Of a stretch of 24,874 bases of DNA, positions 7,495 to 14,889 are shown piece by piece. Source of the DNA: a virus. Lineage: Duplodnaviria; Caudoviricetes. The stretch lies in IMG/VR virus record IMGVR_UViG_3300020045_008320, positions 1 to 24,874 of that record; one strand, written 5' to 3'. The position numbers and the translations under genes are program-made. Position 1 is the first letter of the stretch. Every line of letters begins with the position of its first letter. The notes under the pieces are model-generated. The model made no database searches, had not been told where the DNA came from, and saw only the letters and a list, made by a program, of their open reading frames with translations.

Positions 7495-8265
7495 TTAGGC
7501 AACTTTTGTATTCGCTGCTGCTTGGGTTCCACTTGCTGCCATAGTTCCAGAGTTAAAAATAACTTGACCCTGTTTTACCGCTTGAATATCGCCCGCTAAA
7601 TTATTAAGCGCGGCCAAAATTGCTGAAGAAATTTGTAATTGTTGCTGTGCCTGCCCTTGCGCTTGACCTTGAACCTGTGTCGCGGTTGCGGTGTTCGTTA
7701 CTGACACCTCAACATCACGGATTCGAGAATTGAACTCTTGTCGAGCCAGCGCACTTTCAGCAATTGTGAGTCGGCGTTGCATATCTTGATCGTGATAAAA
7801 ATCAATTTTTGCGCGAGTTTTATCGCCATCGTCGCGGATTGCGGTAGTCGTTGCGTAATTTCCATCTTTTACAGCTGTTAGTAAAGCCGCTGTTGTTGTC
7901 AACACAGTGCGTTCAACTTCGTTAGTTGATGCTAAATTAATAGCTGCTGAAGCCTGCACAGAATCTTTAACGTTTGCAAAACCTTGTTGAGTCCCCAAAG
8001 CGAGCGCCCCTATCGAATGATTGATAGAAGCTTGCGTTTCTAATGCAGTTGTTGGAACGTCTGCTGTAAGGCCGTTAACCGCGTTTAGGATCGCAGCATC
8101 AAGGAATTTACTCGTTTCATTGACACACTCTCCACCTTCGCCACCAAGACCACCACGCCGCAATAGGGATGCGATTAGAACACCCGCTAACAAACCCCCT
8201 TCGCCACCACCGCCAAAACCAAAACCGCCGCGACCACCTACAATATCGTTAATTTCCATAGCCAT
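7495..8265 (-). CDS. Gly-rich/hydrophobic N-terminus plus coiled-coil phage protein of unknown function
   Basis: AAGGGG SD before the ATG; GGFGFGGGGEGGLLAGVLIASLLRRGG N-terminus; Ala/Gln/Thr-rich helical body with DDGDKTRAKI. Confidence 0.8.
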   Translation of the reverse strand: MAMEINDIVGGRGGFGFGGGGEGGLLAGVLIASLLRRGGLGGEGGECVNETSKFLDAAILNAVNGLTADVPTTALETQASINHSIGALALGTQQGFANVKDSVQASAAINLASTNEVERTVLTTTAALLTAVKDGNYATTTAIRDDGDKTRAKIDFYHDQDMQRRLTIAESALARQEFNSRIRDVEVSVTNTATATQVQGQAQGQAQQQLQISSAILAALNNLAGDIQAVKQGQVIFNSGTMAASGTQAAANTKVA

Positions 8266-12420: not shown

Positions 12421-12965
12421 AGATGAGTAAACGATTTGGGAGAAATCAGAAAAGAAAATTATTAGAAAATATTGATTTTTTAAATACTATTAGCGAAAAC
12501 CAAAGCAAAACTATAATTGAGCAAGGCCGCACAGTTTTAAATTTTGGAAAAGATGTTGAGTTGTTGAGAAAACAAATGTACGAAAATGAATATATCGTAC
12601 AAGAAACAAAAAGAATTTTTGGGCAATATTTTATTGCTCTAAAACCTGAAACCGTAAATCTAAACACTAAAGATTTGCCGCCTGAATTTGCTTTTCATAT
12701 TCAACAAGATTTTGAATGTATGGATTTTAGAGCATCAGGCAACGATTCAAGCGCGAATCTAATGCGCACTTATAAATATTTACAAACAACAAAAGGGAAA
12801 GCCTACAAAGAAGAGTTGCGCGGAATGGTTCATTTTTATTTACAATCAACCAAAGGCGAGGTTGGGTATTGCATAGATTGGCAAATGAGAAAAACAATGC
12901 CAGAGAAATATTTAATAGAGTTTATCGCTAAAGAATTGGTCAGAGAATTACAAAAGGTTAAATAA
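12417..12965 (+). CDS. hypothetical protein
   Basis: ATGA-coupled 182-aa ORF; TAATG junction to the next gene. Confidence 0.75.
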   Translation: MKMSKRFGRNQKRKLLENIDFLNTISENQSKTIIEQGRTVLNFGKDVELLRKQMYENEYIVQETKRIFGQYFIALKPETVNLNTKDLPPEFAFHIQQDFECMDFRASGNDSSANLMRTYKYLQTTKGKAYKEELRGMVHFYLQSTKGEVGYCIDWQMRKTMPEKYLIEFIAKELVRELQKVK

Positions 12966-13339
12966 TGGCAACCTCAACAACAAAGCGCAATCCAGAATGG
13001 CTAGCGAAGCAAGACGAAAACGATTTAGCTCTAAACAAGAACTATCGCAGGTCTATAAAATATTATCGAAAGCTATATATGGCATGGCCTGAATGGATAG
13101 CAGACGATAAAAGATTTAGTGAAATCTATAAGCTTCGCGAGTTGATGAATAAAGAAGCCGGTGAAAGTATTTATGCAGTTGACCATATAGTTCCAATTTG
13201 TAGCGATATAGTTTGTGGCTTGCATGTTCCTTGGAATTTAGAAATTATCACTGTAAAAACAAACAATTTAAAATCGAACAAATGGTGGCCAAATCATCCA
13301 TTTGAAAATTTAGATTTATTTAACCAGGGTATTTATTAA
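12965..13339 (+). CDS. HNH endonuclease-family protein
   Basis: VDHIVPI...VCGLHVPWNLEII...NNLKSNK motif. Confidence 0.85.
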   Translation: MATSTTKRNPEWLAKQDENDLALNKNYRRSIKYYRKLYMAWPEWIADDKRFSEIYKLRELMNKEAGESIYAVDHIVPICSDIVCGLHVPWNLEIITVKTNNLKSNKWWPNHPFENLDLFNQGIY

Positions 13340-14424
13340 TGGAAAAAGTTACTTTATATTCAAAAGATGCAAAAGATTCTATCCGTGTTTGGTCTATTCA
13401 TCACGATGATAAAAATATCTATATGTTTTCAGGTTTGTTAGGTGGTGAAGAAACGCCGTTTACAGAACCCGTTGAATTTGGTTTAGGTGGCCGCACCCGT
13501 GAAGAACAGATAGAAATGAGAATAAAAAGCCGGATCAATAAAAAATTAGATTCTGGCTATGTTTATTCTTTAGAAGATGCACGGAATAATGTTAAAACAA
13601 ATTCGCTTGGTTATTTAAAAGCGGCTAAGTGTTCGCGCTATGATGAGCAAAAAGATAAAATCCCATTCACTAAAACTTTTGTGCAACCCAAATTAAACGG
13701 CCACCATTGTTCAATTGTTAATGATAACGGCGTAAAAGTCGCGTATTCAAACGGCGGGAAATTAATAACAACTATCGACCATATTTTAAATGATTTTGAT
13801 TTACCTGTTGGCCGCTCTGTTGAAGGCGAGCTTTACCACCACGGGACAATTTTACAAACTATCTCTAGTTGGGTGCGCAAAAAGCAAGAAAACACAAAAT
13901 TACTTGAATTTGTGTGTTATGACCTCGTTTCTAAAGACTGCTACACAGAGCGATTCAAAACCCTGCAATCGTTCCATTATGGAGCCAACGCAAGGCTTAT
14001 AGAAACCGCTGTGATCAACGGTCACTTTGAAGTAATCCCAATCATTACCGAACACCTGAAAAGCGGCTTTGAGGGCACCGTATTAAGGCTCACGGGCTAC
14101 CCATACGAAGCGGGCAAGCGATCCGCTGGAATGATCAAGGTTAAAGTGATGCACATAGGCGGTGATTTCATCGTGGATGATGAGTTTTTAATCGTTGATG
14201 TTGGTTCAAGTGTTGACGGTTGCGCCGTTTTGTGGTGTGAAACTGAAGAGGGTCGAAGATTTAAAGTTTTGTGCCATGGTGATGTGGCTTTTAAAAAGCA
14301 CGTTTTGAAAAATAAACAAAAATATATTGGAAAACATACTAGAGTTGAATTTGAAGGCTATACAAAAGATAAAAAACCTTTTCAACCAGTTTCCAGAGAA
14401 TTTAGAGAGAAAGCCGATGAATAA
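13339..14424 (+). CDS. ATP-dependent DNA ligase
   Basis: QPKLNG (I), EGELY (III), FVCYDL (IIIa), FEGTVLR (IV), MIKVK (V), OB domain, and an N-terminal LYSKD...RVWSI extension. Confidence 0.9.
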   Translation: MEKVTLYSKDAKDSIRVWSIHHDDKNIYMFSGLLGGEETPFTEPVEFGLGGRTREEQIEMRIKSRINKKLDSGYVYSLEDARNNVKTNSLGYLKAAKCSRYDEQKDKIPFTKTFVQPKLNGHHCSIVNDNGVKVAYSNGGKLITTIDHILNDFDLPVGRSVEGELYHHGTILQTISSWVRKKQENTKLLEFVCYDLVSKDCYTERFKTLQSFHYGANARLIETAVINGHFEVIPIITEHLKSGFEGTVLRLTGYPYEAGKRSAGMIKVKVMHIGGDFIVDDEFLIVDVGSSVDGCAVLWCETEEGRRFKVLCHGDVAFKKHVLKNKQKYIGKHTRVEFEGYTKDKKPFQPVSREFREKADE

Positions 14425-14587
14425 GTACGCAGATATTAAAAAGTCTAAACGTGAAGAAATTGAAAATCATGTTGCTAATTTTTTAAATCATGGAAAACGA
14501 ATAAAAATAATTGCGATTGGTAAGAGCGCTAGTGAAAAAGAAACTCTGACAAATAGACAGAAAACCAGAAACGAAAAATCCCGCTAA
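14417..14587 (+). CDS. SutA RNA-polymerase-binding-domain-like mini-protein (56 aa)
   Basis: KKSKREEIENHVANFLNHGKRIKIIAIGKSA parallels the SutA core as I recall it (KxKERxxLxxxMEEFLxxGGKVxxI). ATG at 14417 overlaps the ligase end. Confidence 0.65.
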   Translation: MNKYADIKKSKREEIENHVANFLNHGKRIKIIAIGKSASEKETLTNRQKTRNEKSR

Positions 14588-14600
14588 TCGCGGGATTTTT
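14574..14600. terminator. bidirectional terminator between the replication and tail/lysis modules
   Basis: AAAAATCCCGC-TAATC-GCGGGATTTTT, perfect 11-bp stem. Confidence 0.9.
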
Positions 14601-14616
14601 ACTTTCATCATATGTT

Positions 14617-14889
14617 TTAGCTGAGACAATGCGATAAATCAAGCGAACGGCGCAAGCCGATAAAACCGTGACACGCTGAGAAGCCGTTGTTCTTGGGTTT
14701 TGAACTGAAAGAATAATCGGTTTTAACGCTTTTTGCAGCAACACAGATTTTTTCAACTGCCTTTAAAACTGGCTCGCAGAATTTTGAAGCAGAGAAAACC
14801 AAAGCTTCTACGCAAAAGCTCGCGAATGATTGACAAGCTAGAACAACACCTAGCGCCAATCGGTGAAGCACATTCTTAAAATTTACCAT
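14617..14889 (-). CDS. small Cys-rich protein with hydrophobic N-terminus (possible exported protein/lipoprotein)
   Basis: Strong SD AAAGGAGAGGG; N-terminus MVNFKNVLHRLALGVVLAC; own promoter upstream. Confidence 0.7.
   Translation of the reverse strand: MVNFKNVLHRLALGVVLACQSFASFCVEALVFSASKFCEPVLKAVEKICVAAKSVKTDYSFSSKPKNNGFSACHGFIGLRRSLDLSHCLS

Follow-up and report, generated by a model that had tools for sequence, protein, structure and literature searches.

A divergent stand-alone SutA-RBD protein encoded behind the replication genes of a phage

A phage gene at 14417–14587 (+) encodes a protein of 56 residues which, on the basis of profile comparisons, is a true but divergent member of the short SutA-RBD-only family, named after the RNA polymerase-binding domain of the bacterial protein SutA. 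As judged from the deduced sequence it is not SutA itself, because it lacks the acidic tail required for activation and has a broken Gly-Gly turn in the domain. We tentatively propose that this stand-alone domain docks on the β protrusion of the host RNA polymerase and that, by analogy with SutA deprived of its acidic tail, it would damp or redirect initiation at host promoters. The gene lies on a stretch of 24,874 nucleotides (positions 1 to 24,874 of IMG/VR record IMGVR_UViG_3300020045_008320), referred to as the window, and its translation confirms the 56-residue product and the peptide quoted in the original prediction.

The phage record behind the window is partial (52% complete; GC content 36.9%). 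Its plus-strand replication block encodes Sak4, a Cas4-like exonuclease, a helicase, a DnaE-type polymerase and an ATP-dependent ligase, as assigned with Pfam and PHROG, and converges with the minus-strand lysis and tail genes. The 56-codon gene lies downstream of the ligase gene (13339–14424 (+); PF01068, phrog_114) and no plus-strand gene follows it before the convergent lysis and tail genes, which agrees, as far as position is concerned, with its predicted place as the last gene after the replication genes. No match to an RNA polymerase or sigma family was obtained among the 29 ORFs of the window and the 40 ORFs of the relative described below, both records being partial. The best matches of the phage (30–45% identity) are to Vibrio, Cronobacter, Colwellia, Acinetobacter and Pseudomonas phages, and the host is, from the hosts of these matches, probably a gammaproteobacterium; no closer host assignment was obtained. 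A SutA-bearing host cannot be assumed, since the SutA-RBD domain was found in only four, a lower bound, of the 400 genomes scored within the class to which a Pseudomonadaceae genome belongs (one further genome was left out of the scoring), and the host of the window phage may lack SutA. Within the neighbourhood, the replication block is broken up by a 256-residue minus-strand ORF of no clear family (7495–8265 (−)), and the ligase gene is preceded by an endonuclease-VII-like gene (124 residues, 12965–13339 (+)) which is absent from that place in the related locus L296. Behind the endolysin gene, a 90-residue ORF (14617–14889 (−)) gives no Pfam or PHROG match, has its own sigma-70-like site (10/12, 14976–14949 (−)) and is without counterpart at that place in L296; given a codon score close to zero (−0.03), it could represent a moron or an RNA, or else have no coding function.

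The 56-codon gene is real. Its ATG lies within the 3′ end of the ligase gene (8-nt overlap) downstream of a weak purine-rich site (AGAGAG), and its own frame has a codon score of 0.07, like that of the neighbouring HNH-like gene (0.08), compared with values between −0.26 and −1.05 for the remaining five frames. A version of 86 residues starting at TTG was rejected, as it has no ribosome site and a negative codon score, and its extension lies inside the ligase gene. A search with DnaE led to nine loci, one of which (L296 in G410) is related at 63% identity; here the ligase gene is followed by one short ORF and then by an 84-residue orthologue (L296:10604–10858), which is 48% identical to the window protein over 54 codons, with a pair score reached by 0 of 2000 shuffles. 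Silent sites between the orthologues are saturated (pS 0.78 overall and 0.94 over residues 2–23), the pN of residues 2–23 equals that of the ligases of the window and L296 (both 0.26), and residues 24–38 evolve faster (pN 0.52). By these substitution rates the gene is under purifying selection. Searching found no third orthologue beyond the window and L296 genes. A match to the Pfam SutA-RBD family (PF20661) is absent in all three cultured relatives recognised by ligase or DnaE (VA-RY-3, Ss1 and AD45-P4) and in both related IMG/VR records, and the SutA-RBD gene is therefore accessory.

The stop codon (TAA, 14585–14587) sits, as the claim of a stop within the terminator had it, in the 5-nt loop of a bidirectional terminator-like hairpin (14574–14600) with an 11-bp stem and a fold energy of −18.7 kcal/mol (z −5.6; 0 of 200 shuffles fold as well). 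T runs flank the hairpin on both strands, and a consensus scan lists the minus strand only. In L296, another gene follows the orthologue and its stop lies at the loop of a bidirectional terminator (L296:11138–11163); the hairpins of the two phages differ in sequence, as do the genes ending there. The stop-in-terminator arrangement was therefore rejected as a trait of the 56-codon gene and rather belongs to the gene, whatever it is, that stands last in this lineage. Since terminators at or just after the translated end of a gene are repressed in E. coli according to the accessible part of PMC4824070, plus-strand termination at 14574–14600 may, by analogy, be leaky.

The relationship to SutA emerged from profiles. 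Searches with the single sequence of the protein database and of viral, metagenome and genome contigs found no relative; those of cultured phages and of the PDB returned only a MazG chance match (E 1) and, as best hit, an unrelated protein (E 0.027), respectively, and a fold search with the predicted model in the PDB and BFVD gave nothing at E 0.001 or better. Matches in the ESM Atlas point to PF20661 clusters at scores below 0.9 and are taken as a lead only. Because the single sequence found nothing, relatives were gathered with motif patterns. The Gly-Gly pattern yielded 79 viral stretches in 27 clusters, of which three (five loci) were dropped as apparent chance matches in long unrelated frames and 24 kept. 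A phage-only profile of these 24 clusters, with the query excluded, scores the window protein at 29.7 bits, a value reached by 0 of 5000 shuffles (best 12.5 bits); the next best of 499 window frames scores 4.4 and the reversed sequence 0.7. A profile of bacterial SutA only, built from 50 acidic-tailed sequences (from 120 genome stretches, 60 of them distinct), gave 10.4 bits, compared with 8.2 for the best shuffle. When a 27-row profile including the query was used, solved SutA (7F0R, 7XL3, 7XL4) was the sole match below E 0.1 (E 4.9e-6). The Pfam model matches residues 12–38 with 19.5 bits (E 6e-4; gathering cut-off 29.3) and the orthologue with 26.2 bits, and the NCBIfam model small_PFL1563 (NF058628) matches the window protein with 21.2 bits (cut-off 60). 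The SutA model NF041490 weakly matches 59 of 114 aligned relatives and did not match the window protein at E up to 1. The predicted SutA-RBD likeness is thus above chance, as indicated by the shuffles and the matched SutA structures, and the HMM search yields a match, but one that stays below the family cut-off. Outside the search pattern, the protein also keeps the commonest family residue at K8 (14/21), R12 (7/24, tied with Ser), G35 (13/24), S37 (9/24) and A38 (7/24).

According to the accessible sections of PMC9300723, binding of SutA to the β protrusion is impaired by changes at ten named residues: K60, R64, L67, M71, F74, L75, G78, G79, V81 and I84. With an offset of 52 these become K8, R12, I15, V19, F22, L23, G26, K27, I29 and I32 in the window protein, so that nine of the ten aligned positions are identical or conservatively replaced, the exception being Lys for G79. 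The polar contacts K60 and R64 are matched by K8 and R12, likewise in the orthologue, and the hydrophobic interface of L67, M71, F74, L75, V81 and I84 by I15, V19, F22, L23, I29 and I32. The orthologue reads K, R, L, T, F, L, K, G, I and I at the ten positions and conserves I29, I32, G35 and S37. On the polymerase side, β S59 and E73, the contacts of K60 and R64, are each kept in 18 of 23 RpoB sequences; an rpoB gene at G033:C3:485366–489419 is found in ten pieces across frames, probably due to assembly errors. An AlphaFold2 model based on 114 sequences (mean pLDDT 83) consists of a helix at residues 3–24, an extended middle and a helix at residues 44–55. The first helix (14423–14488 (+); pLDDT 83–92 over residues 1–20) corresponds to SutA 55–76, thereby matching SutA helix 57–76, and bears K8, R12, I15, V19, F22 and L23. 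Residues 29–38 (14501–14530 (+)) contain I29 and I32 as well as the short family's GxS(A) motif. The region of SutA strand 81–84, which likely forms a sheet with the β protrusion (PMC9300723, accessible part), is extended with no strand assigned in the monomer model. In the proposed complex, helix 3–24 would lie in the protrusion's hydrophobic groove, with K8 and R12 contacting β S59 and E73 and residues 29–32 extending the sheet. Such a putative binding mode appears probable from the aligned residues.

The main evidence against retained binding is the loss of a glycine of the Gly-Gly turn, since bulky changes at G78 or G79 weakened the yeast two-hybrid signal (PMC9300723, in its accessible part). 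The motif of the window protein is FLxxGKRI rather than the FLxxGGKV given earlier for SutA, with G26-K27 (14492–14497 (+)) in place of SutA G78-G79; the Lys at one of the two interface glycines had been overlooked in the original prediction. The two orthologues break different glycines, Gly-Lys in the window and Lys-Gly in L296. The turn is GG in 245 of 249 other fetched proteins, a set gathered with a GG-seeded profile and biased accordingly, GK in three, GN in one and KG in none. All four non-GG relatives pass the Pfam cut-off, the three natural GK variants with 33–43 bits. A scan with the Gly-Lys pattern returned 48 stretches, only four of which are family-like by eye (L015, L016, L042 and L018); five had a stop in the motif, and the doubtful L021 and L029 were left out. 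The broken turn might mean that β binding was lost and the motif redeployed, with the helix now binding another partner, e.g. a replication or recombination protein. Besides the different missing glycine in each orthologue, this reading draws on DNA-metabolism neighbours within two ORFs at 16 of 25 family loci; among 23 control loci taken from chance matches, such a neighbour is seen at 7 when the top match is counted (p 0.025) and at 9 when any match is accepted (p 0.15), an enrichment which is weak because the loci are not all independent. It further draws on a similar helix-FF-x-x-GGK stretch in an unrelated PemI antitoxin fragment (PDB 7EWJ chain C; family-profile E 0.14 over helix and GGK turn), a resemblance probably owed to chance or convergence. 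However, the conserved positions are the β-contacting ones, including the polar K60 and R64 and the exactly spaced positions 81 and 84 of the strand, and GK variants exist above the Pfam cut-off, and we therefore consider redeployment unlikely.

The window protein starts at SutA position 53, with seven residues of net charge 0 before the K60 position, and lacks the acidic N-terminal domain, where 50 of the 60 distinct bacterial matches carry at least 14 D/E. The original prediction had correctly noted this absence but assigned a basic character to the N-terminal tail; the basic tail is C-terminal (residues 39–56, 14531–14584 (+), net +3, with the predicted helix 44–55), and that of the orthologue is 28 residues longer with net +8. 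N2, Y4, D6 and I7 are identical in both orthologues, Y4 occupying wedge-loop position 56.

In SutA, according to the accessible text of PMC9300723, the acidic N-terminal domain enters the main cleft, directing the wedge loop between protrusion and lobe; its removal abolishes activation, and no inhibition by the truncated form (ΔN) is reported in that text. The available part of 10.1101/423384 describes dose-dependent inhibition of rrn transcription in vitro by ΔN SutA, seen with purified components from a strain deleted for sutA, and no effect of SutA on rrn in E. coli in vivo, for which reason host fit matters. As tail-less SutA inhibits in vitro, the likeliest role of the phage protein is that of a damper or competitor on the β protrusion, not of a stimulator. 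The earlier suggestion that it stimulates or competes for RNA polymerase thus survives in its second half, which fits tail-less SutA, while stimulation is at odds with the need for the acidic tail and with ΔN inhibition as described in the accessible parts of both sources. Mechanistically, the lobe would not be wedged open productively without an acidic guide into the main cleft; the protein would behave like ΔN SutA in that it would take up the site, keep off any SutA that the host has and reduce initiation at labile promoters, rrn among them. Provided that binding occurs, we rather expect such damping by analogy. The gene context, with the weak enrichment of DNA-metabolism neighbours at family loci, fits expression together with the replication genes; a look-up of sequencing runs listed none, a result that speaks neither for nor against expression. 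The protein would be made along with the replication genes, and its basic C-tail may touch DNA. From this co-production we propose a shift of polymerase use towards the phage in mid-infection. A role in the switch to late genes, raised earlier, may be considered from the gene position only, and the analysis yielded no evidence that the protein acts in starved or dormant hosts, as had also been suggested.

Alternatively, the protein might dock on the β protrusion but favour phage promoters, either as an activator or by tethering them, with DNA held by the basic C-tail or the wedge loop of SutA replaced by the lineage-specific N-terminal residues. In line with this are the four N-terminal residues common to both orthologues, the rarity of Tyr at position 56 in the family (2/249), the net positive C-tails of 105 of the 149 listed relatives and a weak C-terminal helix-turn-helix match in the member JBD44 gp62 (E 0.002, below cut-off). 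Yet SutA activation requires the acidic tail (PMC9300723 and 10.1101/423384, accessible parts), and the window protein gives no DNA-binding domain match and has a tail of only 18 residues, so that we regard this function as improbable. Still less probable is a plain decoy against host SutA without an effect of its own on RNA polymerase, which would be relevant only in starved hosts using SutA: the window protein does consist of the binding domain only, and some temperate phages of the SutA host P. aeruginosa carry members (JBD44, PAJU2 and YA3), but the domain was found in so few of the scored genomes (the floor given above) and ΔN SutA inhibits in a system from a sutA-deletion strain (10.1101/423384, available part). 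A chance ORF or decayed remnant, as could be suspected from the profile scores below the Pfam and NCBIfam thresholds and from a length 28 residues short of the orthologue, is hardly conceivable in view of the syntenic orthologue with saturated silent sites, the in-frame codon bias and a length within the family range.

The preferred reading as a tail-less β-protrusion ligand concerns a large family. The 27-row phage-seeded profile, query included, finds 778 clusters at 50% identity, from phages and bacteria, among 1.84 billion representatives. Among the 149 other matches listed, 123 have at most 100 residues (median 71) and one has an acidic N-tail, whereby the phage-seeded profile favours short, tail-less proteins. 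Several members were found in particular settings. Those of JBD44 (gp62, L294:4001–4339) and YA3 (L293:3968–4330) have 112–120 residues with a weak C-terminal helix-turn-helix, directly follow annealing-protein and exonuclease genes and, in YA3, are annotated as 'putative transcriptional regulator'. On an unrelated 342-kb phage contig (L082:1420–2784, the one scanned of a cluster with L083, L090 and L104), a short SutA-RBD gene lies directly behind an ATP-dependent DNA ligase gene. A Gly-Lys variant (L015:1054–3048) has rusA on one side and the gene for the terminase small subunit on the other, a position often taken by a late regulator in lambdoid phages. The motif also occurs, once as Gly-Lys, inside proteins of at least 646–931 residues (L059, L095 and L018; the ends of the loci truncate the frames). 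Of five bacterial genomes tested, four (G003, G005, G006 and G007) contain two or three SutA-RBD genes each, including short ones, and bacteria thus probably possess tail-less paralogues beside SutA.

To our knowledge, the only role described for SutA is that of a bacterial activator during slow growth. Should phage versions without the tail bind where SutA does, they would represent a new way in which phages control the host RNA polymerase, as well as a natural ligand of 30–40 residues for the β protrusion; as natural counterparts of the inhibitory ΔN SutA they would help to test how the acidic tail switches an inhibitor into an activator. The family is amenable to such tests now because cultured P. 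aeruginosa phages carry members. The own value of the window gene lies in the orthologue pair, each breaking a different 'essential' glycine with the other contacts largely kept (the orthologue has T at M71). A bolder scenario, to which we give little credence at present, is that phages widely captured the SutA dock as a minimal portable β-protrusion ligand, with the tail-less versions forming an undescribed class of host-transcription inhibitors. The window lineage would then have dropped the Gly-Gly turn and fixed an N-terminal NxYxDI at the wedge-loop position, a segment that would jam the gap between β lobe and protrusion in the absence of an acidic guide; the scaffold of an activator would thereby have become a lobe-locking inhibitor, effective in SutA-less hosts as well. 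Literature searches, with most subscription papers outside their reach, found no published study of phage SutA-RBD proteins or of the function of any short member. The word 'phage' does not occur in the accessible part of a 2026 SutA preprint, nor 'SutA' in that of an AlphaFold 3 phage-inhibitor screen, whose supplementary tables could list family members, and the main text of the paper on Vibrio phage VP1 (10.64898/2025.12.17.695035), as far as accessible, makes no mention of SutA.

Compared to SutA of P. aeruginosa (7F0R, 7XL3, 7XL4; PF20661; NF041490), the window protein shares the helix-turn-strand domain, K60, R64, the six hydrophobic positions in kept or conservatively replaced form, and G78. 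In contrast, it has no acidic N-terminal domain, carries Lys for G79 and an unrelated basic C-tail, is phage-encoded in a replication block and scores below the Pfam and NCBIfam cut-offs, its binding being predicted. The nearest functional model is the engineered SutA ΔN (residues 41–105), in the available part of 10.1101/423384 a binding domain without acidic tail that inhibits rrn in vitro; ΔN retains residues 41–52, both glycines and the C-tail of SutA, whereas the phage protein starts at position 53. The short SutA-RBD proteins (PF20661; NF058628 small_PFL1563; JBD44 gp62) have in common with it the pattern KxxxRxEIxxxVxxFLxxGGKIxxIxxGxS, the small size, the missing acidic tail and often a basic C-tail, and the window protein differs from them by its broken Gly-Gly and a lineage-specific N-terminus. 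The VP1 case (10.64898/2025.12.17.695035) is alike in that, in the accessible text, a phage protein sits on the β protrusion and inhibits initiation; this protein is, however, set apart by its description as a three-helix bundle which lies inside the main channel and connects the protrusion with sigma region 2.
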